Positions 737-19,477 of a DNA stretch of 24,000 nt are shown here, in pieces. The DNA is taken from the NCBI GenBank assembly GCA_902812335.1, contig CADDZL010000003.1, positions 1 through 24,000 of the forward strand, given 5' to 3'. The DNA comes from Chloroflexota bacterium. GTDB lineage: Bacteria > Chloroflexota > Anaerolineae > DSLN01. The notes below the pieces were generated by a model. That model was not told where the DNA came from. It saw nothing but the letters and a program-made list of their open reading frames with translations, and searched no databases. Made by a program: the position numbers and the translations under genes. Every line of letters begins with the position of its first letter. Position 1 is the stretch's first letter.

Positions 737-829
737 GCCGGCAGCCGCTGATCCGACAACCGGTGGAGGCGGTAGGGGTGAAATACACCCGCAGCCGGGC
801 GGGCAGGTTGTGGAATCAGGTTTCATCTA

Positions 830-838
830 TGCTATAAT
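830..838 (+). promoter_or_regulatory. Candidate extended -10 promoter (TGCTATAAT) for the long + strand operon
   Basis: tgctataat at 830-838, 31 nt upstream of ATG 870. AAAAGGAG Shine-Dalgarno at about 856-863. No convincing -35, which extended -10 promoters tolerate. Confidence 0.4.
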
Positions 839-869
839 GGCTATCCCAGTACAAGAAAAGGAGCCGGCT

Positions 870-1748
870 ATGCAGCGTCCTTCTACTTTCTCCATTGTGG
901 CCTACGACCCGCAGCGCGGTGAGTGGGGGGTGGCAGTCCAGTCCAAGTTTCTGGCGGCAGCGGCAGTCGTGTCATGGGCGCGGGCGGCTGCGGGCGCGGT
1001 GGCGACGCAATCGTATGCCAACACAAGTTATGGCCCGCGAGCGCTGGAGTGGATGGCGCAAGGGGTTTCGGCCGAGGAAGTGGTGGCCCGATTAGTTGCC
1101 GATGATGAGGGCCGTGCCCAGCGCCAGGTCGGCGTGGTGGATGCGCAGGGGCGCGCGGCAGCCTTCACTGGCGACGGCTGTTTGCCCTGGGCCGGCCATA
1201 TCATCGGGACACACTACACTTGTCAGGGCAATATCCTGGTAGATGAGCGGACTGTGCAGGCGATGGCCGAAACGTTTGAGGCAACCAGCGGCGAACTGGC
1301 CGAACGGCTGGTGGCAGCCCTGGCTGCAGGCCAGGCAGCCGGGGGCGACCGGCGCGGACAGCAATCCGCAGGGTTATTGGTCGTGCGCGAGAACGGCGGC
1401 TATGGCGGCTTTAATGACCGGTATATTGACCTGCGGGTGGATGATGACCCCCGGCCTATCGAGAAACTGCGCCAACTCCTTGACCTTCATCATCTGTATT
1501 TCGGCCAGACACGCCCCGAAGACTGGCTGCGGATCGAGGGTGACGTCGCCCGCGACCTGCAGCAGTTAGCAGCCAGGGCCGGGTTGTACAATGGCCCGGT
1601 CCATGGTGAATATGACGCGGCGACACGGGCCGCGCTGCGGGCGCTCGTGGGGATCGAGAACCTGGAAGAGCGCTTACGCGAAGAGGATGGGTACATTGAC
1701 GCCGTGGCATTGCAGGTGCTGCACGAGCGCGTGGAGCAGGCGACATGA
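870..1748 (+). CDS. DUF1028-family Ntn-hydrolase-like protein with C-terminal peptidoglycan-binding-like repeat
   Basis: ORF 810..1748. Start moved to ATG 870 (MQRPSTFSIVAYD) behind an AAGGAG RBS. STFSIVA...GVAVQSKF...ATQSYAN...TCQGNIL...GGDRRGQQSA matches my memory of DUF1028. The C-terminus GLYNGPVHGEYDAATRAALRALVG looks like a PG_binding-type helix repeat. Confidence 0.75.
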   Translation: MQRPSTFSIVAYDPQRGEWGVAVQSKFLAAAAVVSWARAAAGAVATQSYANTSYGPRALEWMAQGVSAEEVVARLVADDEGRAQRQVGVVDAQGRAAAFTGDGCLPWAGHIIGTHYTCQGNILVDERTVQAMAETFEATSGELAERLVAALAAGQAAGGDRRGQQSAGLLVVRENGGYGGFNDRYIDLRVDDDPRPIEKLRQLLDLHHLYFGQTRPEDWLRIEGDVARDLQQLAARAGLYNGPVHGEYDAATRAALRALVGIENLEERLREEDGYIDAVALQVLHERVEQAT

Positions 1749-3091
1749 TGCTGATCACACACGGCACAGTGTGTACCTGTGGGGCTGAGCCGCAGGTGCT
1801 TGATGATGGTGCAGTTTGCATCGAGGGCGATCGGATCGCCGCGGTCGGGCCGACCACGGAACTGGCTGTGCGCTATCCGCAGGCGGAACGATTAGATGCC
1901 GCCGGTCAATTGGTCATGCCCGGCGCGATCTGTGCCCATACCCACTTCTACGGCGCGTTTGCGCGGGGGATGAGCCTGCCGGGCGAACCGCCCCGCAACT
2001 TCGTGGAGATCCTCAGGAAGCTGTGGTGGCGCCTGGACCGGGCTTTGGATGAGGAAGCCATCCGCTACTCGGCGCTCGTCTCACTGGTTGACGCCATCCG
2101 CCATGGGACAACCACGCTGATGGACCACCATGCCAGTCCGAACCAGATAGACGGGTCGCTGGATGTTATCGCCGAGGCAGTAGAGCAAGCCGGCCTGCGG
2201 GTCTGCCTGTGCTACGAGGTGACCGACCGCAACGGTGATGAAGGGGCCAAGGCGGGCATTGCTGAGAATGTCCGCTTCATTCGCCGAGTGCGAACGACAG
2301 GCACTGAGCGATTGGCGGCTTCCTTCGGATTGCATGCGTCGCTGACACTGTCGGACCGGACACTAGAGCACGCCGTGGGGGAAGCGCAAGGGCTGGGATC
2401 GGGCTTTCACATTCATGTGGCGGAAGACCAGGCCGACCAGGACGATAGTCTGCGACAGCATGGCCTGCGGGTGGCGCAGCGGTTGGAACGACAGGGCGTG
2501 CTGGGCCAGATGACGCTGGCGGCGCACTGCGTCCACGTGGACCCGGCGGAGATCACTGTCCTGGCACGCACTGGGACAAAGGTCAGCCACCAGCCGCGCA
2601 GCAATATGAACAACGCCGTCGGCACTGCACCGGTTCAGGCGCTGCTTGACGCTGGGGTCCACGTCGGCCTGGGCAACGATGGGTTCTCTAACAATATGTT
2701 CTTGGAGATGAAGGCAGCTTACCTGGTGCACAAACTGGCCGTCCGAGACCCGCGTGCGATGGGCGGTGAGACGGTGATGCGGCTGGCATACGCGGAGAAT
2801 GCCCGCATCGCCAGCCTGTTCTGGCCGGGCACAGTAGGTTCGCTGGAACCAGGGGCTTATGCCGACATCGTGCTGTTGGACTACCGGCCCTATACGCCGC
2901 TGACAGCCGGCAACCTGCCCTGGCATGTTATCTTCGGCGTGGACGGCTCACATGTGACGACCACCATCTGCGCCGGGCGCTTGCTGATGAGAGACCGCCA
3001 ACTGCTGACGCTGGACGAGGAAGCTATTGCGGCCAATGCCCGTGAGGTCGCAGGCAAGGTGTGGCGACGCTTCGCCGAGAGCGGAGACTGA
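1745..3091 (+). CDS. ssnA: SsnA-type putative aminohydrolase (amidohydrolase superfamily, COG0402 clade)
   Basis: 448 aa. PGAICAHTHFYG (HxH), ILRKLWWRLDRALDEEAIRYS, LMDHHASPN, GFHIHVAEDQ, RSNMNNAVG and GLGNDGFS line up closely with E. coli SsnA as I recall it. ATGA overlap with the upstream gene. Confidence 0.85.
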   Translation: MMLITHGTVCTCGAEPQVLDDGAVCIEGDRIAAVGPTTELAVRYPQAERLDAAGQLVMPGAICAHTHFYGAFARGMSLPGEPPRNFVEILRKLWWRLDRALDEEAIRYSALVSLVDAIRHGTTTLMDHHASPNQIDGSLDVIAEAVEQAGLRVCLCYEVTDRNGDEGAKAGIAENVRFIRRVRTTGTERLAASFGLHASLTLSDRTLEHAVGEAQGLGSGFHIHVAEDQADQDDSLRQHGLRVAQRLERQGVLGQMTLAAHCVHVDPAEITVLARTGTKVSHQPRSNMNNAVGTAPVQALLDAGVHVGLGNDGFSNNMFLEMKAAYLVHKLAVRDPRAMGGETVMRLAYAENARIASLFWPGTVGSLEPGAYADIVLLDYRPYTPLTAGNLPWHVIFGVDGSHVTTTICAGRLLMRDRQLLTLDEEAIAANAREVAGKVWRRFAESGD

Positions 3092-3098
3092 AGAGATC

Positions 3099-3761
3099 AT
3101 GCGCATCGCGATCCTCGGGGGCACTGGTAAGGAAGGCTCCGGCCTGGCACTGCGCTGGGCACACGCCGGACACGACCTGGTGATCGGCTCACGCGAACGG
3201 GCCAAGGCCGAACGCGTTGCGGCGGAACTGAACGCTGTCCTGGGCCGTGACGCCATCACCGGGCAGGAGAATCTCAGGGCAGTCGAGCAGGGCGAGGTCG
3301 CCGTCCTGACCGTGCCTTATGCTGCCCATGCGGCCACATTGGAGACTGTGCGCAAGGCGCTGGCGGGCAAGGTGTTGATTGACGTGACTGTGCCACTTGA
3401 CCCGGCCAATGTGCGTCGGGTGAAATTGCCGCCGGCCGGTTCCGCTGCTGTCGAAGCCCAGCAGCTTCTTGGGCCTGAGGTTCGGGTGGTAGCAGCATTC
3501 CATAATGTGTCCGCCGAACATCTGAAGAGGCTCGGTGACCCAATTGACTGCGACGTGCTGGTATGCGGTGATGACAGGTCTGCGAAGGAAGTCGTTATCG
3601 GGCTGGCGGCTGATGCCGGTATGCGCGCGTTCGACGCCGGCGCGCTGGCGAACGCGGCTGTGCCGGAGGGGCTGACGTCGGTGCTGATCAACATCAATGC
3701 GCGCTTCAAGATCAAGGATGCCGGCATCCGCATTACGGGCATCCCCCAGAGCAACTCATGA
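3099..3761 (+). CDS. npdG: NADPH-dependent F420 reductase (F420H2:NADP+ oxidoreductase, NpdG/Fno)
   Basis: ORF 3027..3761. Start moved to ATG 3099. MRIAILGGTGKEGSGLALRWAHAGHDLVIGSR Rossmann N-terminus and VAVLTVPY...VLIDVTVPL are typical of the NpdG family. Confidence 0.85.
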   Translation: MRIAILGGTGKEGSGLALRWAHAGHDLVIGSRERAKAERVAAELNAVLGRDAITGQENLRAVEQGEVAVLTVPYAAHAATLETVRKALAGKVLIDVTVPLDPANVRRVKLPPAGSAAVEAQQLLGPEVRVVAAFHNVSAEHLKRLGDPIDCDVLVCGDDRSAKEVVIGLAADAGMRAFDAGALANAAVPEGLTSVLININARFKIKDAGIRITGIPQSNS

Positions 3762-4522
3762 CTGATCACCCCACCATACAGATCATCGCTATTCCCGGTA
3801 TCCCGTTGATCCGAGCGGGGGACGATCTGGCGGCCATGTTGCTTGACCGGCTGATCGCTGCCGACCTGCGTTTGCAGGACGGCGATGTGCTGGTGGTCAC
3901 CTCCAAAATTGTGTCTAAAGCCGAGGGTCGGGCCGTGTGGCTGCATGATGTGGTGCCCTCGCCGCAAGCCACAGAGCTGGCAACTGTCTGCCAGAAGGAC
4001 CCACGACTGATCGAGGTGATTCTGCGCGAATCGAAGCGAGTGCTGCGCACCCGGCCGGGGCTGATCATCGTGGAGGACCGGCGCGGCTTTGTGTGCGCTA
4101 ACGCCGGAGTGGACCATTCCAACGTGGCGGGCGAGGACTGGGTATTGTGCCTGCCTGAAGACCCGGACCGCTCGGCATTGATGCTGCGGCGGCAACTCGA
4201 AGCGGTGACCGGTGCCCGCATTGGCGTGATCATCGCCGACAGTCATGGGCGGGCCTTCCGCATGGGAACAGTAGGGGTGGCCGTGGGTGTGGCCGGAGTA
4301 GCCGGCCTGCTCGACCTGCGCGGGCGGCCCGATCTGTTCGGCTATCGGCTCCAGGTGACACAAGTGGGCCTCGCCGATGAAATCGCGGCAGCCGCTTCGT
4401 TGCTGATGGGCCAGGCAGATGAGGCCCGCCCAGCGGTGCTGGTGCGCGGTATGCCCTATCCGCTGCGCGAGGGCAACGCTCAGGAGTTGGTCAGGCCACG
4501 TGAACTGGACCTGTTCCGATGA
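3758..4522 (+). CDS. cofE: Coenzyme F420-0:L-glutamate ligase (CofE / FbiB N-domain equivalent)
   Basis: 254 aa. IPGIPLIRAGDDLA, GDVLVVTSKIVSKAEGR, FVCANAGVDHSN and IIADSHGRAFRMG are CofE hallmarks. ATGA overlaps on both sides. Confidence 0.9.
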   Translation: MTDHPTIQIIAIPGIPLIRAGDDLAAMLLDRLIAADLRLQDGDVLVVTSKIVSKAEGRAVWLHDVVPSPQATELATVCQKDPRLIEVILRESKRVLRTRPGLIIVEDRRGFVCANAGVDHSNVAGEDWVLCLPEDPDRSALMLRRQLEAVTGARIGVIIADSHGRAFRMGTVGVAVGVAGVAGLLDLRGRPDLFGYRLQVTQVGLADEIAAAASLLMGQADEARPAVLVRGMPYPLREGNAQELVRPRELDLFR

Positions 4523-5415
4523 ATATCTACGTGCAGCCAATTGCTGCTTCTCGCGAATCGAAGCTGCGTCCCTACCTGGCATTAGGCGTCGGCGTTGTCA
4601 GCCTGGGTTTCTCGGCGATCTTTGTGCGCTGGGCGCACGCGCCGGGTGCCGTTACCAGTTTCTACCGCGTGGCCATTGCCGCCGCCTTGTTAGCCTGGCC
4701 CTTCTTCCGTCGGGTCCGCGCCAGGGGAGGGCTGGCACGGCGTGGGGTTCAATTCGCCGTGCTGGGCGGGTTGTTCTTTGCGGGTGATCTGACCTTGTGG
4801 ACCACAGGCGTGGTTCTCAGTGGCGCGACCAACCCCACGTTGCTGGCCAACACAGCACCGTTGTGGGTCGGATTGGGCGCATTGGTCCTCTTTCATGAGA
4901 GACTCAATGCGACGTTCTGGGTGGGTTTGCTGCTGGCGATGATCGGTGCGCTGGTTGTCCTGGGTCTCGATGCTCTGCGCGCCACGTCCCTCGGCCTGGG
5001 GACGTTCTTGGGGCTCCTGGCCGGGGTGTTCTACGGCGGCTACTTTCTGATCACCCAGCGCGGTCGTGAAACCCTTGATTCGCTGACCTACTTCTGGCCT
5101 GCCGCTGCCAGTTCGACGGCGGCTCTGCTCGTTCTAAGCCTAGCCTTGCGCCAGCCTCTGACCGGCTACCCGGCCTTCACCTACCTGAACTTCATTGCCC
5201 TGGGCCTGGTGACCCAGGTCTTTGGTTATCTGGCGATTAATTACGCTCTGGGCCACTTACCCGCTTCGCTGGTATCGCCAACGCTGCTGGGCCAACCGGT
5301 GGTGACTGCGGTTCTGGCCGGGCCGCTCCTGGGCGAGTCTCTGCAGTTGTGGCAGGTCTTGGGTGGACTGGGCGTGCTGGCCGGGATTTATATTGTCCAT
5401 CGCAGCCGATCATGA
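4519..5415 (+). CDS. EamA/DMT-superfamily transporter (about 10 TM, two EamA repeats)
   Basis: 298 aa, hydrophobic throughout with about 10 helix-length segments. The general EamA pattern (FVRWA..., [27 protein letters not shown]) is present. ATGA overlaps with cofE upstream and the nitroreductase downstream. Confidence 0.8.
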
Positions 5416-6014
5416 ATGTGACTGAAGCGATCCGATCACGCCGCTCGATCCGGCGCTACTTGCCTGAGCAGGTGCCGGACGAAGTTGTTATGAGGCTGTT
5501 AGAAGCGGCTTGCTGGGCACCATCGGCGCATAATCGCCAGCCATGGCGCTTCGCCGTTATCACCGCTGCCGTGGTCAAGGAACAGTTGGCGCGGGCAATG
5601 GGCGCGCGGCTGCGGGCCGACCTGGAACGGGACGATGCGCCATCGCAGGCGATTGAGCGGGATGTCAGCCGTTCCTTTGCCCGCATCACCGGCGCACCGG
5701 TCCTTGTGCTGGCCTGCCTGACCCTGTCCGATATGGACACCTATGCTGACGCCAAGCGTGCCCGGGCTGAGTGGGTGATGGCGGCGCAGAGCGTGGCTAT
5801 GGCAGTACAGAACCTGCTGCTCGCTACTCAGGCGGAAGGGCTGGGAGCATGTTGGATGTGTGCGCCGCTATTCTGTCCGGAGACAGTTCGTGCCGTCCTC
5901 GACCTGCCGGAGGACTGGGAGCCGCAGGCGCTGATCACGCTGGGATATCCCGCGGAGCCACCTAAGGATAAGGGACGGGAGCCGTTAACCAGCCGCGTGA
6001 TTTTTTATAGATGA
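5412..6014 (+). CDS. Nitroreductase-family protein, stand-alone homologue of the FbiB C-terminal (dehydro-F420-0 reductase) domain
   Basis: ORF 5349..6014. Start moved to ATG 5412 (ATGA overlap). [19 protein letters not shown] and GLGACWM are nitroreductase-fold motifs. The position between cofE and cofD supports an F420 biosynthetic role. Confidence 0.75.
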
Positions 6015-6940
6015 AAGTCGTGGCTTTGGCGGGGGGCGTCGGTGGGGCCAAGCTGGCCGATGGGCTGGCACGGCTTTTGCCGCCGGCTGATCTGACGATC
6101 GTCGTGAATACGGCCGACGATTTCACCTGGCATGGGCTGCATATCTCACCCGACCTGGACACGGTGATGTATACCCTGGCGGGGCTTGCCAACCCGGAGA
6201 CCGGCTGGGGCGTGGTCGGGGATGCCTTCCTGGCCCTGGACATGCTGGGGCGTTACGGGCAAGAAACCTGGTTTCATGTCGGCGACCGCGACCTGGCAAC
6301 GCACGTCCTGCGCAGCCATTTGCTACGCCAGGGTATGACGCTGACCGCAGTCACAGCTACACTGGCACGGGCGTTGGGCATAGGGGCGACACTCCTGCCC
6401 ATGAGCAACGAACGTGTGGAGACCGTGGTCGAGACCGACACGGGCGATCTGTCTTTTCAGGAGTATTTCGTCCGCTATGCCTGGCAGCCGGTGGTACGCC
6501 GCCTCCGTTGGGACGGGCTCGATGTAGCCCGGCCAGCGCCAGGCGTGCTGCCGGCGCTGCAGGCCGCGGCTGTCGTGGTGATCTGCCCTTCGAATCCCTT
6601 TGTCAGCATCGGCCCGATGCTGGCTCTGCCCGGCGTACGCGCCTCTCTCCGGGCCGCCCGGCGCGTCCTGGCCGTCTCGCCCATCGTCGGCGGCCGGGCG
6701 CTCAAGGGACCGGCGGCCAAGATGATGGCCGAACTGGGCCAACCTGTTTCCGCCGTGAGCGTCGCGCAGGGCTATGCCGATTTCCTGAATGCGTTCATTC
6801 TAGATCGAGTTGATAGCGCCGAGGTTCCCCAGGTTGAGGCTCTGGGTGTGCGGCCCTTCGTCACAGACACGATCATGCAGGACCAGGCCGGTCGCATCCG
6901 GCTGGCACAGCAGGTCCTGAAGCTGGCGGAGTCGCTGTGA
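6011..6940 (+). CDS. cofD: 2-phospho-L-lactate (or enolpyruvyl) transferase CofD/FbiA
   Basis: 309 aa. [34 protein letters not shown] and [12 protein letters not shown] are CofD signatures. Confidence 0.9.
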
Positions 6941-7542
6941 TGCGTACGACGAAGACCTGGGCCATCGTCCCGGTAAAGCCGCTGCGGCAAGCTAAAAGTC
7001 GGCTCGCGCCAGCGCTCACCGCTAACCAGCGGGCGACGTTGGGACGCTCGTTCCTGGCGCACACGCTGGATGTGCTGACCTCCGGATCAGACCTGGCCGG
7101 TGTGCTTGTGATCAGCGCGGACGCGACGGCCCTGGATCTGGCGCGTGCCAAAGGTGCTGTTGGCCTGCTGGAGACTGACCCTGGCCTGAATGCTGCACTG
7201 GCGCAGGCGACGGCCTGGGCGGTCGAGCATGGCGCTGACGCGACTCTGGTCGTGCCTGCCGATTTGCCGCTGCTCGCGCCAGAAGACATCCAGAGAGTGC
7301 TGGCATTGGCAGAGCCGATGCCAACCGTTGTCCTGGCTCCCGACCGGCGCGAGGAAGGTACGAATGCGCTCCTCAGCGCCCCGCCCGGCCTGATCCCTTA
7401 TGCCTTCGGCCCCGGCAGTTTCGCCCGCCACCGGGCGCACTGTCGGGCACGGAACGTCCCTTGTCGGGTTTATCGCTCGCCGCGCCTGGCGTTTGATGTG
7501 GATTTACCTGAAGACCTGCGCCAGTGGGTGGGCAGCTTGTAA
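6940..7542 (+). CDS. cofC: Phospholactate/phosphoenolpyruvate guanylyltransferase CofC/FbiD
   Basis: ORF 6937..7542 begins GTG-ATG. ATG 6940 overlaps the cofD stop (GTGATG). WAIVPVKPLRQAKSRLA, LVISAD and VVPADLPLL fit CofC. Confidence 0.85.
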   Translation: MRTTKTWAIVPVKPLRQAKSRLAPALTANQRATLGRSFLAHTLDVLTSGSDLAGVLVISADATALDLARAKGAVGLLETDPGLNAALAQATAWAVEHGADATLVVPADLPLLAPEDIQRVLALAEPMPTVVLAPDRREEGTNALLSAPPGLIPYAFGPGSFARHRAHCRARNVPCRVYRSPRLAFDVDLPEDLRQWVGSL

Positions 7543-7581
7543 TTTCTCTCCTCATTTGTAAGGCAGTCCAGGTGGGGGGAC

Positions 7582-7610
7582 TTGCTCCGCGCCTCTGTTC
7601 AGTGTACGAT
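7582..7610 (+). promoter_or_regulatory. Candidate internal sigma-70-like promoter (TTGCTC - 17 nt - TACGAT) ahead of the LLM/hydroxylase genes
   Basis: ttgctc at 7582-7587, exactly 17 nt, then tacgat at 7605-7610. It lies in the only sizeable intergenic gap (87 nt) of the array. A GGGAGGTGG RBS follows at about 7618-7626. Confidence 0.25.
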
Positions 7611-7629
7611 ATTGCCTTGGGAGGTGGCC

Positions 7630-8640
7630 ATGAGCGGAGACCGGGTGGCACTTTACTTGCAGGATGCTCATCCGATACGGGATGGGATGCGTTATGTGCA
7701 ATATGCCGAAGCGCGTGGCTTTGAAGCAGTCTGGCAGGCCGAGTCGCGCCTGGTGCGCGACGCCATCGTGCCGATGGCTGCCTTCGCTGCGGTCACAGAA
7801 CGGATCAAGGTCGGCTCCGGCGTGGTAAACAACTGGACGCGCAACCCTGCGCTTCTGGCCGCGACTTTTCTGACGCTCGACGATCTGGCCCCGAACCGGA
7901 TCATCTGTGGCATCGGCGCATGGTGGGACCCCCTGGCTGCCAATGTCGGCATTACCCGGTCCAGGCCGCTCACGGCCATGCGCGAGGTGGTCACGGTGGT
8001 GCGCGATCTGTTGGCGATGAAACGGGTAACCTTTCACGGCGAGTTCGTCCACGTTACCGATATCGAACTCGATGTGGTACACGGCCGGCGCGAGCCGCGC
8101 CATGTGCCCATTTACATCGGCGCGACCGGGATGCAGATGATGGAGCTGGCTGGTGAGATCGCCGATGGGGTCCTGCTCAATTACTGTGTGCCGCCGGAGT
8201 ATAATGATGCTGCGCTGGAGCATTTGGAAGCGGGAGCGCGACGGGCCGGGCGTTCACTCGATAGTCTCGACCGACCGCAGCTTGTGGTGTGCTCAGTGGA
8301 CTACGATCATGAGCGGGCGCTCGATGGCGCGCGCGAACTGCTGACGCAGTATCTGGCTCAGCAACCGCATATCGCCCAGGCCAGCGGTGTGAAGCCGGAG
8401 GTGGTGCAGGAGATTCGGGGCATCCTCGGCTGGCCGGCGACGAAGGAACAGATCCATCGGGCTATGCGGCTGGTGCCTGATGATCTGGTTGAGCGCATCA
8501 CGGCCAGCGGTACGCCAGCGGAGGCTAAGGCCAAGGTGCGCGAATATGTTGCCCACGGCTGTACCTGCCCGATTCTATACCCGCTGGGGGATGTACAACT
8601 GATGATTGATACCTTCGCCGAGGGCTATACCGCATCATGA
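7630..8640 (+). CDS. LLM-class (luciferase-like, Mer/FGD-related) F420-dependent oxidoreductase
   Basis: ORF 7582..8640. Start moved to ATG 7630 behind [54 protein letters not shown] and [14 protein letters not shown] match the TIM-barrel LLM family typical of F420 enzymes. Confidence 0.8.
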
Positions 8641-9527
8641 CTCTGCTGAATCTACGGGAATACCATCGCCCCGAGACGGTCGAGGAGGCGCTGGCGGCCC
8701 TCACCCCCGGTCCCTCTCCCAGAGCTTGGGGAGAGGGGAAGGTCGTCCCTCTGGCCGGTGGCACAGCATTGATAGGCACAGGCGGACCAGATGTCGGTGC
8801 GGTTGTAGATCTGGCTGAGCTTGACCTCGCCTGCGTTCGAGCGGACGCTGAGGCAGTCTACCTCGGCGCGATGACATCCTTGCAGATGCTGGTCGAAGCC
8901 TCGCAACTGGCCGGCCCGGCGTTAGGGATCGTCTCCCAGGCCGCGCGGCTGCAGGTCGGCCGCAACCTGCGTGTGGCGGCGACGCTGGGTGGGACGCTGG
9001 CTGTGACCGGCCCCGAAGACCCGCTTGGGGTGGTGTTATTGGCACTGGATGCCCAGGTCCAGGGGGCAGTGGGCAGTCAGCGGTGGGCGATGCCCCTGGA
9101 TGACTTTCTTGAGGAGCGCGGAAAGTATTTGGAACAGGGCGGCCTGATCACAGAAGTTATCATACCCGGAGGTGCAGCGGGGACCGTGGCTGCTTTTGCC
9201 CGCGTAGGGCGGACACCCGCCGACCGGCCGATTGTGTGTGCTGCTGCTCGCCTGGCAGTGATAGATAGGCTGTGCGCCGGGCCACGACTGGCTCTGGGCG
9301 GTGTGGCCGCCCGGCCGGTGCGTCTGCGCCAGGTGGAGGAGATGGTCTCGGGCAAGATGTTGGGGGATGACCTTTTGGCTGAGGCAGCTACGCTGGCCAG
9401 TGCCTCAGTGTCACCGCCTTCGGATTATCGGGGCAGCGCTGACTATCGGCGCGCCATGGCCGGCGTGCTGACTAAGCGCGTGCTGGCGCAGGCGGCTCAT
9501 CTGGTGCTGACCGCTGAGCCGGCATAA
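8637..9527 (+). CDS. Molybdenum-hydroxylase FAD-binding (medium) subunit, YgfM/CoxM-like
   Basis: 296 aa. [14 protein letters not shown]...[11 protein letters not shown]-terminus, ATLGGTLA, and C-terminal [17 protein letters not shown] (CO-dehydrogenase flavoprotein C-domain motif). ATGA overlap with the LLM gene. Confidence 0.85.
8712..8737. repeat. Perfect 9-bp GC-rich inverted repeat (ccctctccc / gggagaggg, 8-nt loop) inside the FAD-subunit CDS
   Basis: 8712-8720 ccctctccc, loop agagcttg, 8729-8737 gggagaggg. It encodes the PSPRAWGEG part of [13 protein letters not shown] in the variable loop before the AGGT motif. Confidence 0.7.
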
Positions 9528-9541
9528 TCGGAGCCAGGACG

Positions 9542-12500: not shown

Positions 12501-12553
12501 GGCGGGCACTGCGACAGAAGCAGACGCTGATGAACGCTCATGAACGCGGATAA
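9542..12553 (+). CDS. xdhD: Fused [2Fe-2S] small subunit + molybdopterin-binding large subunit of an XdhD-type molybdenum hydroxylase
   Basis: 1003 aa. The N-terminal 160 aa carry both 2Fe-2S motifs ([11 protein letters not shown]...C, QCGFCTP...CRCTGY). A linker of about 60 aa follows, then the Mo domain: [62 protein letters not shown] and KAVAEIP. The architecture and the GGGFGSKQ motif match E. coli XdhD as I recall it. GGAG RBS 8 nt upstream. Confidence 0.85.
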
Positions 12554-13349
12554 AATCTTTGAAGCCATTGTTGAGGCCGAACGCAAGGGCCAGCCGGTCG
12601 TGCTGGCGACCGTCGTGCGGGCACGCGGCTCGGTCCCGCGACACGAAGGGGCCAAGATGCTGGTCTATCCCGACGGCTCAATCTGGGGGAGCATTGGTGG
12701 CGGCGAGATGGAGTCGTGGGTCATCGGCGAGGCGCTGGCGGCGCTGCGAGAGGGCCGGCCCAGGTATGTAAACTACACGCTGGTGAATCCAGCAGAGGGT
12801 GACCCGGGCGTATGTGGGGGCGAGGTCGAGTTGTTTGTCGAGCCGCTGTTGGCAGCGCCGACGCTGCTGGTGGTGGGAGCCGGGCACGTGGGGCGGGCGG
12901 TGGCGTTTCTAGGGAAGTGGCTCGGTTTTCGCATAGTCATATATGATGACCGCCCTGACTACGTCACAGCCGACGCAGTCCCCTCCGCCGACGTGCGTCT
13001 CACCGGTCCGCTGGCTACGGCGCTCAAGGACATTGCCATCACGCCCGATACTTACATCGCGGCGGTGACCCGCTCTTATCCGATGGATGTGGAGCTATTG
13101 CGGCTGGTGCTGGATTCGCCGGCGGCTTATATTGGGCTGATCGGCAGCCGCCGGCGCGTGCAAGAGGTCTTCAAGGTATTGCGGAGTGAGGGCGTGCCTG
13201 AGGACAAGCTGATGCGGCTGCACGCGCCTATCGGCCTGGAATTGCACGCCGAGACGCCGGAGGAGATCGCCGTCAGCATTCTTGGCGAGATCATTATGTT
13301 GCGGCGGGGTGGATCGGGTAAGGCTATGAAGATGATGAATGGCACATGA
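12540..13349 (+). CDS. xdhC: XdhC/CoxI-family molybdenum cofactor insertion chaperone
   Basis: 269 aa. VLATVVRARGSVPRHEGAKMLV..GSIGGGEME, GGEVELFVEPL and a Rossmann segment LLVVGAGHVGRAV..IYDDRP. The start overlaps the xdhD-like 3' end by 14 nt. Confidence 0.85.
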   Translation: MNADKIFEAIVEAERKGQPVVLATVVRARGSVPRHEGAKMLVYPDGSIWGSIGGGEMESWVIGEALAALREGRPRYVNYTLVNPAEGDPGVCGGEVELFVEPLLAAPTLLVVGAGHVGRAVAFLGKWLGFRIVIYDDRPDYVTADAVPSADVRLTGPLATALKDIAITPDTYIAAVTRSYPMDVELLRLVLDSPAAYIGLIGSRRRVQEVFKVLRSEGVPEDKLMRLHAPIGLELHAETPEEIAVSILGEIIMLRRGGSGKAMKMMNGT

Positions 13350-14776
13350 CGATGTGGGATACCTACTACACACCGAGAACTGTTGACGAGGTCCTCGACC
13401 TGCTGGCGCGCTATGGGCGCGAAGCGCGCATTATCGCTGGCGGGACCGATCTTCTAATTGAGCTGGAACGCAAGGTCCGGCGAGTAGCCGTTCTGATTGA
13501 CATCACGCGCATTCCCGGCCTGGACGAGATCACCCTGGACGAGGCGGGCTGGATTCACCTGGGGCCGTTGGTGACGCACAACCGGGTAGTGAATTCACCC
13601 CTCATCGTCGAACGGGCCTTCCCGTTGGCGCAGGCGGCCTGGAAGGTCGGCGCGCCACAGATCCGTAATCGTGGCACCATCGCCGGCAATCTAATCACTG
13701 CCTCGCCCGCCAACGACACGATCACGCCGTTGTGGGCGTTGGACGCGCGGGTGACCTTGCTAAGCAGGCGCGGGCAGCGCACGTTGGGCTTCCCTGAGTT
13801 CTTCCAGGGAGTGCGTCGGACCGCGATGGCCGATGATGAGATGCTGATCGACATTGCCTTCCCGGCGATGGGCCGGCCTGAGCGGGGCACGTTCGGCAAG
13901 CTGACACTTCGGCAGGCGCAAGCTATCTCGGTGGTCAATATCGCTGTCATAGTAGAGTTGGATGATCACGTTGTGCGACGGGCCCGCCTGAGTTACGGCA
14001 GTGTCGCGCCGACGATTGTCCGGGCTGAGGAGGCCGAAAGATGGCTGGTTGGCAAGAGCCTGGATGACCCTGCGATTGCGCGTGCCGCGCAACTGGCGAT
14101 GGAAGCGGCGCGGCCGATTGATGACGTGCGGGTGACAGCCGAGTATCGCCGCGAAATGGTGGGTGTGATGACCGCGCGGGCCTTGCGAGCCTTGCGTGAT
14201 GGGGCTGAACGCGCCGATTGGCCCGATAGGCCGGTCATGCTTTGGGGGAAGACGGAGGGGCGCATCCGGCCCCTGCCGGGCCCAACGATGCGGCACGGCA
14301 CAGGCAGCGATGATGCCATCGAGACGCGCATCAATGGTCGGTCATATGTCGTCCGAGGGGCGAACGATAAGACGCTGCTGCGTATGCTGCGCGAGGATAT
14401 CGGATTGACGGGCACGAAGGAGGGTTGCGCTGAGGGTGAATGCGGTGCCTGTACGGTATTCCTTGACGGCATGGCAGTGATGGCATGTATGGTCGCCGCG
14501 CCCAAGGCGCATGGAGCCGAGATCACCACTGTGGAGGGGCTGGCGCAGGACGGAAAATTGCATCCGATCCAGCAGGCATTTATTGACGCGGGTGCGGTGC
14601 AGTGTGGCTATTGCACGCCGGGGTTTCTCATGGCCGGAGCAATGCTCCTGGCCGAACGGCCTCACCCGTCGCGTTGGGAGGCCGAGCAAAGCATCACGGG
14701 CAATCTGTGTCGCTGCACTGGCTACTATAGTATCCTGGCCGCGATTGAGCGGGCAGGCCGGACGGATCAGAGATAG
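13346..14776 (+). CDS. Fused FAD-binding (medium) + [2Fe-2S] (small) subunit of a second molybdenum hydroxylase
   Basis: 476 aa. Residues 1 to about 290 form the FAD domain (IIAGGTDLLIE, RNRGTIAGNL, VRVTAEYRREM). Residues from about 324 to 476 form the FeS domain ([26 protein letters not shown]). ATGA overlap with xdhC. Confidence 0.9.
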   Translation: MTMWDTYYTPRTVDEVLDLLARYGREARIIAGGTDLLIELERKVRRVAVLIDITRIPGLDEITLDEAGWIHLGPLVTHNRVVNSPLIVERAFPLAQAAWKVGAPQIRNRGTIAGNLITASPANDTITPLWALDARVTLLSRRGQRTLGFPEFFQGVRRTAMADDEMLIDIAFPAMGRPERGTFGKLTLRQAQAISVVNIAVIVELDDHVVRRARLSYGSVAPTIVRAEEAERWLVGKSLDDPAIARAAQLAMEAARPIDDVRVTAEYRREMVGVMTARALRALRDGAERADWPDRPVMLWGKTEGRIRPLPGPTMRHGTGSDDAIETRINGRSYVVRGANDKTLLRMLREDIGLTGTKEGCAEGECGACTVFLDGMAVMACMVAAPKAHGAEITTVEGLAQDGKLHPIQQAFIDAGAVQCGYCTPGFLMAGAMLLAERPHPSRWEAEQSITGNLCRCTGYYSILAAIERAGRTDQR

Positions 14777-14785
14777 GAGGCAGTT

Positions 14786-15073
14786 ATGGCTTTCCGACGC
14801 GCACCAGAACGCCCACGCCCCAAGCCCGATCCGGTGCGGCGGGCCTGTTTGGGCCTGGTCTATTTTGCGGTCCTGGCCGTCGTCGCTTACGGCCTGTTCA
14901 CGCTAATTGACAGCCGCGTGCAACTGCGGCAAGTGCTCGAACTGGGAAGCGAGATACCCGATGTGGTTGTGGCCGTTGTGGGATCGCTAGTCCTATTCGG
15001 TATCCTGCACTTGTTGGTTCTCATGGGGACCTCTATCGTTCGTGGAGGGAAAACGAATGGCACTCGGCCTTAG
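14786..15073 (+). CDS. Small hypothetical membrane protein (95 aa, basic N-terminus, two predicted TM helices)
   Basis: ATG 14786 lies 5 nt after a strong AGGAGG (14775-14780). Hydrophobic stretches [22 protein letters not shown] and [22 protein letters not shown]. Without this gene there would be a 280-nt hole in an otherwise gap-free operon. I recognise no family. Confidence 0.55.
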
Positions 15074-17255
15074 CCTGCCCCGCATTGACGCCCTGGGCAA
15101 AGTCACGGGCACAACGCCCTATCCCGGTGATTTGAACCTGCCGGGTATGCTGCACATGAAGATTTTGTTTGCCGGCCGGCCGCATGCCCGCATCCGCCGC
15201 CTCGACACGCACCGGGCAGAAGCCGTGCCTGGCGTTGTGGCCATACTCACGGCCAAGGATGTGCCCGTCAATGAGTATGGGCTGATTATTAATGACCAGC
15301 CCGTGTTGTGTGGACCTGGCAGCCGCAAGCAGGGCGCTGATGTCGTCCGCTTCATCGGTGATCAGGTGGCGCTGGTTGTGGCTGAGTCGGAGAAGGCGGC
15401 AGCGACCGCACGTGATTTGATCGAGGTAGACTACGATGATCTTCCTGTGGTCACCGATCCGGTTGTGGCGATGCGGCCGGACGCGCCGTTGCTCTTTCCG
15501 GAACTGGGCACGAATGTCCTCAAGCATTACCGTATCCGCAAAGGCGATATCGCTACCGGCTTTACCCAGGCTGATGTTGTCATCGAGAGCACCTACCGCA
15601 CGCCCTTTCAGGAGCATGCCTATCTACAGCCGGAGGCAGGCCTGGCCTACGTAGATGAGGCCGGGCGGGTGACCGTGGTAGTGGCCGGGCAGTGGACACA
15701 TGAGGACCAGGCACAGATTGCGCATGCGTTGGACCTGCCGGTGGATCAGGTGCGTGTGATCTATCCGGCTATCGGCGGCGCGTTCGGCGGGCGCGAGGAT
15801 ATGTCGGTGCAAATCGTGCTGGCGCTGGCAGCCTGGAAGCTGCGGCGCCCGGTCAAGATCGTGTGGAGCCGGGAGGAGTCCATCGTCGGCCATCACAAGC
15901 GCCACCCCATGGTGCTGCGTGCGCGCTGGGGGGCGACACGGGAGGGCAAAGTCGTCGCGGCAGAAGTAGAGGTCATTGCCGACGCCGGAGCGTATGCTTA
16001 CACCTCGACTAAAGTGCTGGGCAATACGACCCTGATGTGCACCGGGCCGTACGAAATCCCCAACGTGAAGGTAGACAGTTATGCCGTCTACACCAACAAT
16101 ATCCCCACCGGTGCCTTTCGAGGCTTTGGCGGTCCGCAGGGACTGTTTGCCGCCGAAACCCAGATGAACAAGCTGGCCGAAGCGCTGGATATGGACCCGG
16201 TTGAACTGCGGCAGCGCAACCTGTTGCGCGAAGGCAGCCTGCTCTCGGTCGGCACACCGCTGCCGCCAGGCGTGACCATCGGCCAGGTGGTGCAGGCAGC
16301 GGCGGAGGCTGGTTGGAACCTGCCCTCACCCCCGGCCACTCTCTCCAAGGCCGGCAAGAGGGGAGCAAGGGTAAAGGGTAAAGGCTTTGCCTGTGGTTTC
16401 AAGAACGTCGGCTTCAGCTTCGGCGCGCCTGAGCGTTGTTGGGCGACGGTGGAACTATACGGCGGGACCGAGATTGAGCAAGTGATTGTGCGCCACGCCG
16501 GGGCTGACGTCGGACAGGGAGCACATACGGCCATTGTCCAGATGACGGCTGAGGCTGCTGGCGTCTCTGTTGAGAAAGTGCGGTTGGTTGCCTCAGATAC
16601 GGCGGAGACAGGTGATTCAGGCAGTTCATCGGCGTCGCGCATGACCTTCATGGCGGGCAATGCCGTGCGGGGTGCGATGGAGGCGGCGCTGGCGAAGTGG
16701 CGCGATGAAGAAAGGCCCGCAGTAGCTACGTATGTGTACCGGGCGCCACCGACCACGCCTTTCGACCCGGAAACCGGCCATTCTGAACCCAACTTTGCCT
16801 ACGGCTACGTGGCGCAAGTGGCCGAAGTTGAGGTGGACACCGAGACCGGCCAGGTGCGGCTTGTCCGGGTCGTCTCTGCTCACGATGTTGGCCGGGCGGT
16901 CAATCCGCAACTGATCCAGGGTCAGATTGAGGGCGGGGTGGTTCAGGCGCAGGGCTACGCCCTCATGGAGAACCTGGTTGTGCGGGATGGCCGCATCCTC
17001 AACCCATACCTGAGCACCTATCTGATTCCTACAGTGTTGGATGTGCCGGAACGGGTTGAGTCTGTTATTTTGGAGTGCGCCGACCCACGTGGGCCCTGGG
17101 GGGTGCGCGGCATGGCCGAGATGCCCTTCCTGCCCTTAGCGCCTGCTGTCATCGCCGCAGTTCACGACGCGACCGGTGTGTGGTTCGACGCCATCCCCCT
17201 GACGCCTGAGCGAGTTCTGGCCGGTTTAAAGAGCCAGCGCTCAGCGAACGGCTGA
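15057..17255 (+). CDS. Molybdopterin-binding large subunit, xanthine-dehydrogenase-like (XdhA/PucD type)
   Basis: ORF 15042..17255. Start moved to ATG 15057, 6 nt after [35 protein letters not shown] (Glu aligned with bovine XDH E802), [10 protein letters not shown] (R880 equivalent) and GMAEMP (E1261 equivalent). Confidence 0.9.
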
Positions 17256-17274: not shown

Positions 17275-18108
17275 ATGTTGTCTCCTGAGGCAGCTTTCGA
17301 AGGCGCGCTTATTCTGATTAAGGGCGCGGGCGATCTGGCCTCCGGCGTCGCCTACCGGCTGCACCGCGCCGGTTTCCCGCTAGTGATGACCGAATTACCT
17401 GAGCCGTTGGTCGTGCGCCGCGCCGCGGCGTTTGCCGAGGCGGTGTACTCTGCTCAGACGAACGTCGAGGGGCTGGTAGCGCGCAAGGCAGCGAATGTGG
17501 CAGAAGCGCTTGCGCTGGCGCGGCAAGGCATGATCCCGGTGCTGGTGGACCCGACGACAACCTGTCTGGGGGCGCTGGCACCGCTAGTCTTGGTGGACGC
17601 GATCATGGCCAAGCGCAACACCGGCACGCGGATAACCGATGCACCCCTGGTGGTCGCATTGGGGCCGGGTTTCGTTGCGGGCGTGGATTGCCATGCAGTG
17701 ATCGAGACCAATCGGGGGCACTGGCTAGGGCGGGTCTACTGGAACGGGTCGGCTGAGCCGGACACAGGCATTGCCGCCCCAGTGGTGGGCTACACTGCTG
17801 AGCGCGTGCTGCGAGCCCCCTGCGACGGGCCAATCGAGACCTTCTGCCAGATCGGCGACGCCGTCCGGCAGGGGCAGTTCGTGGCAGCGGTGGCCGGGCA
17901 AGGGGTAGCAGCGCCATTTGACGGGGTGGTGCGCGGGCTGATTCACCCCGGGCTTATGGTGCGAGCCGGGTTAAAGATCGGTGATGTGGACCCCAGGGCA
18001 CAGCGTGAGCACTGCTTCACCATCTCGGACAAGTCTTTAGCAGTAGGGGGCGGCGTGCTGGAGGCGGTATTGGCGTCGCCGGCGGTGAGGGCGCGGCTGT
18101 GCCGCTGA
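17275..18108 (+). CDS. yqeB: YqeB/EF2563-family selenium-dependent molybdenum hydroxylase system protein
   Basis: 277 aa. ILIKGAGDLASGVAYRLHRAGFPLVMTELPEPLVVRRAAAFAEAVY matches my memory of the TIGR03309 family N-terminus. It sits directly downstream of a hydroxylase and upstream of yqeC. No clear RBS, so the start is uncertain. Confidence 0.7.
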   Translation: MLSPEAAFEGALILIKGAGDLASGVAYRLHRAGFPLVMTELPEPLVVRRAAAFAEAVYSAQTNVEGLVARKAANVAEALALARQGMIPVLVDPTTTCLGALAPLVLVDAIMAKRNTGTRITDAPLVVALGPGFVAGVDCHAVIETNRGHWLGRVYWNGSAEPDTGIAAPVVGYTAERVLRAPCDGPIETFCQIGDAVRQGQFVAAVAGQGVAAPFDGVVRGLIHPGLMVRAGLKIGDVDPRAQREHCFTISDKSLAVGGGVLEAVLASPAVRARLCR

Positions 18109-18112
18109 AGCC

Positions 18113-19477
18113 ATGCAGCTTCGCCGGGCTCTTCGCATAGTCAAAGGTGACATCATCGCCTTCGTCGGCGCTGGCGGCAAGACGACCGCAATATTCCGAT
18201 TGGCAGATGAGATGGCCGCCGATAGTTGCCGCGTTGTCATCACCACCACGACGCACATGTACCCTCCAACTGGCGGTGACCTGCCGGTTATCACAGGTGA
18301 CGGGGATGAGTTGCTCCAACGTGTGCGGCAACGGCTGAATCAGGTTAGCCGCGTAGTCGTGGCATCCACCTATGTAGACACGCCCGAAGGCACAAAGCTG
18401 GCCGGTCTCAGGCCGGAATTTGTCGCGTTGCTCAGCGGAGGCACACAGGCGGATGTCGTCTTAGTCGAGGCAGACGGTTCCCGTGGGCGGCCTCTCAAGG
18501 CCCCGGCAGCGTACGAGCCGGTCATCCCGCCGGCTGCGACGCTCGTTGTAGCAGTGGCCGGACTCAGCGTTCTCGGCCGGCCGCTCGGCGGTGAAACCGT
18601 TCACCGGTCGGAACGGGTGACTGCCCTCGCAGGTATTTCTGACGGAGAGATGATCACACCTGAGCATTTGGCGAATGTCCTCGTTCATCCGGAAGGAGGG
18701 CTGAAGGGCATACCGGAAGGAGCGCGTGTTGTGGCCTTACTCAACCAGGCAGACGATCCGGCGCGCCTCGATGCAGGCCGGCAGGTGGCAAACCGGCTCT
18801 TGCGCCAGGGGCGATTCGCGGCGGTAGGTATCAGCGCGCTGGGGGGCCTCATCAGCGATGGGGTGCGCGAGGTGCACGAACGGGTTGCCGCTATTGTCCT
18901 GGCGGCCGGTGCAGGACGGCGCTTTGGTGGTGCCAAGCAACTGGCGCTCTGGCGGGGTCGGCCGCTGCTGGTGCACGTGGTTGAGGCGGTGCTTGCCAGC
19001 CAGGTGACTGAGGTGGTGATCGTTACGGGTTATGAGAGTGAGAGGGTAGCAGCGGCTGTGTCGAGTTGGGGTCCACATCTTCGCATAGTCATGAATCCCA
19101 ACTGGTCCAACGGACAAAGCACATCCGTGCACACCGGACTGAGCGCCCTGCCTACAAACATAGGAGCTGCCCTCTTTGTCCTGGCGGACCAGCCACGCCT
19201 GTCACCCCAGGTCATCAACGCGATCCTGCAATGTCGCCGCGAGACGCTCGCGCCCATCGTTGCCCCAACCTATGGGGAACAGCGGGGTAATCCCGTGCTC
19301 TTCGACCGCGATCTATTTCCCGAGTTGCTGGGGACGACCGGTGACGTTGGCGGGAGACTGTTGATCGAGAGATATGCGGAGCAGGTGGCCTGGCTGCCCT
19401 TCGCCGTTGAACTGGCCCCGGGGGACGTGGACCGGCCGGAGGACCTGCAGGAGGATAACGCGGACGGCGGGCCATAA
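18113..19477 (+). CDS. Fusion protein: YqeC-family selenium cofactor accessory protein (aa 1 to about 245) + MocA-like molybdenum cofactor cytidylyltransferase (aa from about 247 to 454)
   Basis: The N-terminal part has IIAFVGAGGKTT (P-loop), VVITTTTHM and VLVEADGSRGRPLKAPAAYEPVIP, as in TIGR03172/YqeC. The C-terminal part has AAIVLAAGAGRRFGGAKQL, VVIVTGY, NPNWSNGQSTSV, LADQP and GNPVLFDR, as in MobA/MocA-type NTP transferases. Confidence 0.8.
   Translation: MQLRRALRIVKGDIIAFVGAGGKTTAIFRLADEMAADSCRVVITTTTHMYPPTGGDLPVITGDGDELLQRVRQRLNQVSRVVVASTYVDTPEGTKLAGLRPEFVALLSGGTQADVVLVEADGSRGRPLKAPAAYEPVIPPAATLVVAVAGLSVLGRPLGGETVHRSERVTALAGISDGEMITPEHLANVLVHPEGGLKGIPEGARVVALLNQADDPARLDAGRQVANRLLRQGRFAAVGISALGGLISDGVREVHERVAAIVLAAGAGRRFGGAKQLALWRGRPLLVHVVEAVLASQVTEVVIVTGYESERVAAAVSSWGPHLRIVMNPNWSNGQSTSVHTGLSALPTNIGAALFVLADQPRLSPQVINAILQCRRETLAPIVAPTYGEQRGNPVLFDRDLFPELLGTTGDVGGRLLIERYAEQVAWLPFAVELAPGDVDRPEDLQEDNADGGP

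Follow-up and report, generated by a model that had tools for sequence, protein, structure and literature searches.

A Mer-Like Luciferase-Family Protein at the Junction of F420 and Molybdenum Hydroxylase Genes in Chloroflexota: A Candidate 2,8-Dioxopurine Reductase

Gene Content of the Locus and a Candidate Reductive Urate Pathway

The window analyzed here, a stretch of 24,000 nucleotides (nt) from a Chloroflexota bacterium (GCA_902812335.1, contig CADDZL010000003.1, positions 1-24,000), carries a plus-strand gene array in which the gene for an oxidoreductase of the luciferase-like monooxygenase (LLM) class directly precedes the gene for a small FAD-binding subunit of a molybdenum hydroxylase (the feature at 7630-9527). 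The LLM gene stands at the junction of two blocks: upstream are the genes for supply of the cofactor F420, namely Fno, CofE, a stand-alone nitroreductase resembling the C-terminal domain of FbiB (FbiB-C), CofD and CofC, with the amidohydrolase SsnA at the far end, and downstream are the genes of two molybdenum hydroxylases (Table 1). With a second gene caller, applied to the metagenome contig of origin (Logan SRR24490441), the gene boundaries were identical. NCBIfam scores were judged against the curated cut-offs, a score below the cut-off being taken to indicate a homologue and not a curated equivalog. Neighbor identities were established by comparing the window with the ygf/xdh region of Escherichia coli, and for the study of relatives 80 species-representative genome loci were fetched and the window proteins were mapped onto them.

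The reductive (2,8-dioxopurine) pathway of urate degradation, established by two studies in 2025, begins with the conversion of urate to 2,8-dioxopurine, performed by XdhD-YgfM in E. coli or by XdhAC in C. sporogenes. The product is then dearomatized by either YgfK, using NAD(P)H, or UacX, and its ring is opened by SsnA. According to Li et al. (2025, PMC12507026), Glu606 of XdhD orients urate for 2,8-dioxopurine formation. Several proteins of the window resemble components of this pathway. SsnA is 36% identical to its E. coli counterpart; the small FAD subunit matches YgfM best (30% identity, 81 bits, vs. 54 bits for XdhB); and the protein encoded next to it, in which the [2Fe-2S] and molybdopterin subunits are fused (FeS-Mo fusion), has as its best E. 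coli match XdhD (37% identity, 590 bits), which shows the same fused architecture. The XdhD-specific insertion and the equivalent of Glu606 (Glu632, in the motif WSEGRE) are present in the FeS-Mo fusion and in 13 aligned orthologues, and this whole segment is absent from E. coli XdhA and from the molybdopterin subunit of the second hydroxylase in the window. Both SsnA and a YgfM-type FAD subunit paired with a Glu606-bearing, XdhD-type protein are thus found in the array.

What the window lacks is the usual dearomatizing enzyme. A tblastn search of the window and of the 80 related loci detected no YgfK homologue, and the UacX family (PF01180) had zero matches among the scanned window genes. As for the enzymes acting further downstream, homologues of HyuA, YgeW (UacY), YgeX, YgeY and YqeA are not found in the window, YgeY and YgeX flanking the LLM gene in one related locus (L077, see below). 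We cautiously favor the reading that the window holds a Chloroflexota version of the reductive urate cluster, in which the LLM protein would act as an F420H2-dependent replacement of YgfK and would pass its product to SsnA. In this scheme, the YgfM-like FAD subunit and the XdhD-like FeS-Mo protein would remove the 6-oxo group of urate, yielding 2,8-dioxopurine. CofC, CofD, CofE and the FbiB-C-like nitroreductase would assemble F420, which Fno/NpdG would reduce with NADPH. The LLM protein would then reduce the pyrimidine ring of 2,8-dioxopurine with a hydride taken from F420H2, i.e., it would carry out the step performed by YgfK in E. coli and by UacX in C. difficile, and SsnA would trap the reduced product by hydrolysis that opens the ring.

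An original prediction, made from the letters of the window, had left two options for the LLM protein: docking on the hydroxylase as an F420-reactive module, or acting on a ring intermediate made by the hydroxylases. The second option has gained ground. It agrees with the YgfM- and XdhD-like neighbors, with the presence of SsnA in the array and with the absence of YgfK and UacX from the window genes searched, as well as with a published prediction, since Li et al. (2025, PMC12507026) propose, from genome neighborhoods, that a luciferase-family protein of Chloroflexota is a 2,8-dioxopurine ("yanthine") reductase. The role of the LLM protein is therefore already predicted in print, and the window adds supporting detail to a published cluster variant. 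In the literature searched, this paper was the only one to link F420 with SsnA, and a 2021 review of F420 biology describes no purine role (PMC8498797). The same review provides a chemical precedent, as an F420H2-dependent reductase of the same superfamily (luciferase-like hydride transferase, LLHT) transfers a hydride to the aromatic ring of picrate and thereby reduces it (PMC8498797).

Table 1. Features of the array, with coordinates in the window; scores are given with their curated cut-offs in brackets (aa, amino acids).
Feature	Coordinates	Strand	Basis or remark
DUF1028 + PG_binding_2 gene	810..1748 (open reading frame; called start 870)	+	Overlaps SsnA start by 4 nt
SsnA amidohydrolase, marker of the reductive urate pathway	1745..3091	+	NF005540 546 (444); TIGR03314 526 (455)
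Fno/NpdG, NADPH-dependent F420 reductase	3099..3761	+	TIGR01915 222 (150)
CofE, F420-0:glutamate ligase	3758..4522	+	TIGR01916 294 (181)
EamA-type transporter	4519..5415	+	Between CofE and nitroreductase, 4-nt overlap with each
Stand-alone nitroreductase, FbiB-C-like	5412..6014	+	TIGR03553 151 (below 250); Pfam Nitroreductase
CofD	6011..6940	+	TIGR01819 320 (257)
CofC	6937..7542	+	TIGR03552 169 (105)
CofC-LLM intergenic gap, 87 nt	7543..7629	+	Read from sequence
Candidate promoter, weak, putative	7582..7610	+	TTGCTC (7582-7587), 17 nt, TACGAT (7605-7610)
LLM-class, Mer-like, presumably F420-dependent oxidoreductase, 336 aa	7630..8640	+	Pfam PF00296; putative F420H2:2,8-dioxopurine reductase
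ATGA stop/start overlap	8637..8640	+	LLM TGA (8638-8640), FAD-subunit ATG (8637-8639); from sequence
YgfM-like FAD-binding subunit, 296 aa	8637..9527	+	FAD_binding_5 78 bits + CO_deh_flav_C 75 bits; TIGR03312 93 bits, below cut-off
XdhD-like fused [2Fe-2S] + molybdopterin subunit (FeS-Mo), 1003 aa	9542..12553	+	TIGR03313 709 bits, below cut-off; putative urate to 2,8-dioxopurine reductase
XdhC-type molybdenum-cofactor insertion chaperone	12540..13349	+	Pfam XdhC_CoxI + XdhC_C
FAD + [2Fe-2S] fused subunit of second molybdenum hydroxylase	13346..14776	+	Domain searches
95-aa open reading frame, two predicted membrane helices	14786..15073	+	Own GGAGG; overlaps second Mo-subunit gene by 17 nt; second gene caller agrees
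Molybdopterin subunit of second hydroxylase, PucD-like	15057..17255	+	Without XdhD insertion
YqeB, selenium-dependent molybdenum-cofactor maturation protein	17275..18108	+	TIGR03309 361 (220)
YqeC + MocA-like cytidylyltransferase fusion	18113..19477	+	TIGR03172 202 (73); TIGR03310 155 (below 186)

Fold and Active-Site Residues of the LLM Protein

The LLM protein matches the Pfam family Bac_luciferase with 231 bits over residues 13-311, which places it among the luciferase-like (beta/alpha)8 TIM barrels; the family calls of the original prediction for this protein and for the FAD subunit (Table 1) both stand. Its 15 best NCBIfam matches, led by the two Mer models, are F420 families, and because all of them score below their cut-offs, the protein belongs to no named subfamily. 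Among solved structures, the closest by sequence are Mer (149 bits), followed by FGD and Adf. An AlphaFold2 model built on 39 sequences (pLDDT 93.9) superimposes on Mer of Methanocaldococcus jannaschii (jMer) with a TM score of 0.88 and 31% sequence identity, and the top 22 matches of a structural search with this model are all F420 enzymes, again Mer first and then FGD and Adf. The Gly-Val sequence motif at the non-prolyl cis-peptide site that serves in Mer as the backstop for F420, following strand beta3, is retained (G64-V65, in gap-free alignment with G61-V62 of jMer), as is the carboxamide residue of the F420 site (Asn184; Asn at residue 178 of jMer). Together with the adjoining F420 genes and Fno, these family and structure matches point indirectly to F420, and not FMN, as the presumed cofactor of the LLM protein. 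Homologues number in the thousands; the best 120, all from Anaerolineae, Caldilineae and related Chloroflexota, share 77-99% identity with it. A GAWW(D/E)P motif is distinctive of the LLM clade.

The likeness to Mer raises the question of whether the LLM protein is itself a bacterial Mer-type F420-dependent reductase of methylene-tetrahydropterin (tetrahydrofolate or tetrahydromethanopterin), filling the methylenetetrahydrofolate reductase (MTHFR) step that is reported to be missing in some Chloroflexi. Mer is the closest characterized relative by both sequence and structure, homologues carry the annotation Mer at the Joint Genome Institute, a Chloroflexi genome from Lost City is devoid of MTHFR (PMC7117926), and the high conservation of the LLM protein described below would suit an enzyme of central metabolism. 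Nevertheless, the scores against the Mer models stay well under their curated cut-offs (NF002619, 183 vs. 276; TIGR03555, 181 vs. 349), and three of four pterin-site positions of jMer differ, Asn at residue 178 alone being kept: the catalytic Glu6, at the end of strand beta1, is replaced by Tyr9, Phe233 by Gln240 and Asp96 by Trp99. The latter two pairs were read from a HMMER alignment, and the Glu6/Tyr9 pair was obtained by gap-free extension to the N-terminus, using what we take to be the first ten residues of jMer, anchored on the published Glu6 and Val8. Tyr9 lies at the end of a predicted strand (residues 7-9), and no member of the clade has an acidic residue in that column; in jMer, the Glu6Gln mutant keeps only 0.4% of the activity. 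The gene context, furthermore, is that of purine catabolism and not of one-carbon metabolism. On the curated cut-offs and the catalytic residues, we reject the identification of the LLM protein as Mer and consider a role in methylene-tetrahydropterin reduction quite improbable.

Gene Order in Relatives and Borders of the LLM Gene

The original prediction had the LLM gene heading a hydroxylase sub-operon. This is not how the gene is arranged in relatives, where it usually closes a block of the order SsnA-Fno-CofE-FbiB-C-CofD-CofC. The steady partner of the LLM gene in the 80 relatives is the upstream F420 block, Fno to CofC, which itself follows SsnA in most loci. The direct upstream neighbor could be evaluated in 75 loci, the direct downstream neighbor in 71, and at least 6 kb was available on both sides in 42. 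CofC lies directly upstream on the same strand in 44 of the 75 loci, CofE in 4 and a divergent FbiB-C/CofD/CofC block in another 4; junctions between CofC and LLM are often short, with 4-nt overlaps in four loci (L014, L017, L025 and L040). The downstream side is variable: the next gene encodes a protein of the hotdog/4HBT type in 15 of the 71 loci, a membrane protein of ~860 aa in 10, a YgfM-like FAD subunit in 7, a FAD-FeS fusion in 5 and XdhC in 1. A gene of the xanthine dehydrogenase (XDH) family is nonetheless commonly close, being found no more than 5 kb downstream of LLM in 33 of 53 loci, and among the 42 well-flanked loci F420 genes occur in 37, XDH-family genes in 30 and SsnA in 27.

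The genes found in relatives between LLM and the hydroxylases, as identified by eye or with Pfam, encode PMT_2-like membrane proteins of 830-900 aa, hotdog/4HBT proteins, a metallophosphoesterase, a DHH/CBS protein, an M16 peptidase and GlcD, and among them no obvious enzyme of a purine pathway was recognized. The hotdog-fold protein, of ~160 aa (Pfam 4HBT in L086), follows LLM in L024 (10990-11487), L016, L031, L035, L065, L070, L086 and others, and its gene often stands ahead of YgfM-like and XdhD-like genes; a hotdog gene is absent from the window. Small PNPOx-like proteins are encoded near LLM, on the minus strand, in two close relatives (L085, 1498-1932; L092, 2179-2592). PNPOx-like is also the fold of FDOR, the second large family of F420H2-dependent reductases.

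Conservation differs strikingly between the LLM protein and its surroundings. Median identity to the window is 77% for LLM (range 74-81%), 66% for the FeS-Mo fusion, 58% for SsnA, 51% for CofD, 48% for CofC and 32% for the FAD subunit (range 27-40%). The LLM protein is therefore more conserved than every neighbor, and more than would be expected of a peripheral catabolic enzyme.

Several of these observations weigh against the urate reading. The tightest and commonest neighbor of LLM is CofC, which is not a purine enzyme, and because LLM directly abuts F420 genes in 52 of the 75 loci, it could be no more than a companion of the cofactor genes. In nine of the 42 well-flanked loci F420 genes are not accompanied by any XDH-family gene within 10 kb, and in three the associated genes are all absent. 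The median identity of LLM, above that of any pathway partner, would also suit a housekeeping enzyme, and the window contains no gene for FO synthase (cofG/cofH or fbiC). The substrate, finally, would be assigned from gene context and from the absence of the usual enzyme. The CofC adjacency, the nine loci with F420 genes and no XDH-family gene and the high identity also speak for an alternative, in which LLM would be the main F420-dependent housekeeping reductase or dehydrogenase of these bacteria, whose substrate would have nothing to do with purines, and would stand beside the hydroxylases only via the F420 block; the short or overlapping CofC junctions, the retention of 74-81% identity across Anaerolineae and Caldilineae and the likewise CofC-adjoining LLM gene of a distant relative (P0121, 54% identity) all agree with it.

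Against a housekeeping role speak the position of the F420 block, behind SsnA in most loci, and the occurrence of LLM with purine-related genes where F420 biosynthesis genes are not nearby. The latter arrangement is seen next to hydroxylase genes in seven loci (L008, L026, L027, L044, L085, L086 and L091). In L077, from Caldilineaceae, positions 7301-13968 encode YgeY, YgeX, LLM and 8-oxoguanine deaminase (597 vs. a cut-off of 532), in this order and followed by what is by eye a BMP-type binding protein, with F420 biosynthesis and hydroxylase genes absent within reach. In two further Caldilineaceae loci (L004 and L073) LLM is co-directional with a FAD-FeS/Mo hydroxylase and the F420 genes are divergent from it. 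Moreover, clusters of this kind need some dearomatizing reductase and hold no other candidate. We thus regard a purine-unrelated housekeeping function as unlikely, though a serious contender, and retain the F420H2-dependent reduction of 2,8-dioxopurine as the preferred role.

A few homologues in other settings may be mentioned here. In the distant relative P0124 (46% identity) the LLM gene abuts an amidohydrolase gene, the last base of its stop codon being the first of the next start; this neighbor is a deaminase-type enzyme and not SsnA (SsnA models score 212 vs. a cut-off of 444). Locus L019 contains, at ~11.1-12.1 kb on the minus strand, a second LLM paralogue of 321 aa, convergent with and 125 nt downstream of the LLM gene, the usual neighbors being absent from this locus. 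Long homologues that might have represented fusions of LLM with a partner (P0267, P0223, P0206, P0215, P0207 and P0216) turned out to be LLM fragments or obvious chimeras, with partners such as ribosomal protein S19, MFS and HEAT, and are uninformative.

At the borders of the LLM gene, the features described in the original prediction are real as letters: the 87-nt gap, the gene itself, the TTGCTC-17-TACGAT elements and the ATGA overlap with the FAD-subunit gene were confirmed in the sequence and by script (Table 1). CofC ends with TAA at 7540-7542, and the ATG of LLM at 7630 is preceded, at a distance of 5 nt, by a GGAGG ribosome-binding site (7620-7624). That the gap is the only real one in the array is true only if the 95-aa reading frame at 14786-15073 is counted as a gene; otherwise a gap of 265 nt opens there. 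The promoter proposed ahead of LLM fared less well. Its two elements match the consensus at three and four of six positions, i.e., 7 of 12, which is no better than chance, and a scan of 6800-9800 at a threshold of 9 of 12 returned zero promoter-like sites. Likewise, Rfam gave zero family matches across the whole window, the gap included, the predicted folding energy of the gap RNA is no better than that of shuffled sequence (z = +1.0), and the sole nearby terminator-like hairpin falls within the CofC gene.

The ATGA overlap had been taken as a sign that the LLM protein and the FAD subunit are stoichiometric partners or act in consecutive pathway steps. In the plus-strand array, though, 8 of the 16 junctions are ATGA or GTGA overlaps of 4 nt and two more are longer overlaps, and because such junctions are the default here, the argument for partnership is weak: the overlap is ordinary operon compaction and says little on this matter. 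If the urate reading is correct, it would link two consecutive pathway steps, which is not evidence of a physical complex. The idea that LLM docks on the YgfM/XdhD-type hydroxylase as an F420-reactive module, passing reducing equivalents between F420 and FAD, was judged from gene order and relative conservation. In its favor may be cited the 4-nt overlap in the window and in L060, direct adjacency of LLM and the FAD-subunit gene in ten loci (L008, L014, L026, L054, L060, L075, L080, L085, L091 and L092), among which L014, of the cultured Anaerolinea thermophila, shows the gene order of the window, the divergence and weak scores of the FAD subunit, and the need of an XdhD-type reaction for a reductant. 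Among the closest metagenomic relatives (81-90% identity), LLM is followed by the FAD subunit in three of five, with gaps of 18-83 nt (L085, L091 and L092), and genes are inserted between the two in the others (L086 and L090).

Across relatives, however, the adjacency, whose conservation the original prediction had proposed as a check, is rare. It occurs in 7 of 71 species-level loci, and a 4-nt overlap of LLM with the next gene, present in 9 of 75 loci, involves the FAD subunit in one (L060), XdhC in one and the hotdog gene in six. Unrelated genes (membrane protein, thioesterase, PIN, restriction-modification) often separate LLM from the hydroxylase, and the FAD subunit is 27-40% identical where LLM is 74-81% identical. 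The F420-reactive modules known from redox complexes are FrhB-family proteins and not LLM proteins. Known F420 enzymes of the LLM type pass the hydride directly to their substrate (PMC8498797). The docking option of the original prediction is accordingly one that we consider extremely unlikely. A related possibility is that LLM is physically joined to the YgfM/XdhD pair, in which case both reductions would draw on F420H2, or the first enzyme would hand 2,8-dioxopurine directly to the second; this reading, which would apply to the sub-lineage in which the genes are adjacent, appears very improbable.

Concerning the remaining genes of the window, the DUF1028 gene that overlaps the start of SsnA has no homologue in the 80 related loci, and its pairing with SsnA is therefore specific to this lineage. 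The EamA-type transporter inserted in the F420 block likewise has no homologue at that position in any of the 80 loci; given this transporter and a window devoid of an FO synthase gene, uptake of FO or F420 is a possibility. For the 95-aa reading frame, tblastn gave zero matches among the 80 loci; at the corresponding place relatives have unlabelled reading frames of 123-142 aa, devoid of tblastn similarity to it. YqeB and YqeC lie beside the hydroxylase genes, as is characteristic of selenium-dependent molybdenum hydroxylases. The XdhC-like and YqeB-like genes, ~4 kb apart in the window (12540-13349 and 17275-18108), correspond to parts of a single protein in E. coli, where residues 2-259 of YqeB are XdhC-like and residues 258-524 YqeB-like; conversely, YqeC and MocA are one fusion in the window (18113-19477) and separate in E. 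coli. Just beyond the cluster, a class-V aminotransferase gene (19634-20719, minus strand) and a gene for a TRZ/ATZ-type amidohydrolase (20860-22185, plus strand) diverge from each other, with all NCBIfam scores below cut-off. The TRZ/ATZ-type family includes 8-oxoguanine and guanine deaminases. These two enzymes may feed or drain the purine pathway.

Comparison With Known Systems and Significance

The closest published counterpart is the Chloroflexota variant of Li et al. (2025, PMC12507026), which combines SsnA with XdhD/YgfM-type genes and has a PF00296 protein where YgfK or UacX would stand, and of which the window is an instance; the basis given in the available part of that paper is only the co-occurrence of families within 15 genes of SsnA. 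Compared with that part of the text, three aspects of the present analysis are new, namely the presence of Fno and F420 assembly genes between SsnA and LLM, the Mer-like nature and very high conservation of the LLM protein, and the variable gene order downstream of it. YgfK of E. coli (DOPOR) and UacX of C. difficile are, like LLM, encoded in a cluster together with SsnA and XdhD, and they share with it the proposed reaction, in which the two-electron reduction that dearomatizes 2,8-dioxopurine is coupled to the opening of the ring by SsnA. Neither is homologous to LLM. YgfK, of ~1030 aa, is an NAD(P)H-dependent Fe-S flavoprotein and UacX an FMN enzyme of the PydA-like type, whereas the LLM protein is a TIM barrel of 336 aa with no Fe-S or flavin domain and would use free F420H2.

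Mer (PDB 8qpl and 1z69), with ~31% identity and a TM score of 0.88, shares the LLM-type TIM barrel, the Gly-Val motif and the asparagine at the F420 site, and it, too, acts on a fused pyrimidine heterocycle. It differs in the points already given, as the LLM protein scores below the Mer cut-offs, has Glu6 and two pterin-site residues replaced, carries the GAWW(D/E)P motif, is bacterial and is encoded in a purine-catabolic context.

The degradation of picrate in Rhodococcus and Nocardioides follows a similar two-part logic, in which a NADPH:F420 reductase feeds a LLM-family enzyme that starts catabolism by transferring a hydride onto an electron-poor aromatic ring. The picrate system pairs NpdG (Fno) with the F420H2-dependent LLM hydride transferase Fht/NpdI. 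The Fno protein of the window matches the npdG model. The picrate system differs in its nitroaromatic substrate and actinobacterial host, and it includes neither molybdenum hydroxylases nor SsnA.

If the proposed role of the LLM protein is correct, purine catabolism would gain its first F420-dependent enzyme, and the dearomatization of 2,8-dioxopurine, the difficult point in the breakdown of urate without oxygen, would have a third unrelated solution besides YgfK (with NAD(P)H) and UacX (probably with ferredoxin). Should the joined-complex reading hold instead, it would provide the first LLM-type F420 module on a molybdenum hydroxylase. A small enzyme free of Fe-S and flavin domains that does the job of YgfK could be of interest for the engineering of urate-degrading probiotics, the host of which must also make F420. 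For the biology of Anaerolineae and Caldilineae, where much of a cofactor-supply pathway sits inside a catabolic cluster, the proposed reaction would give F420 a concrete physiological job.

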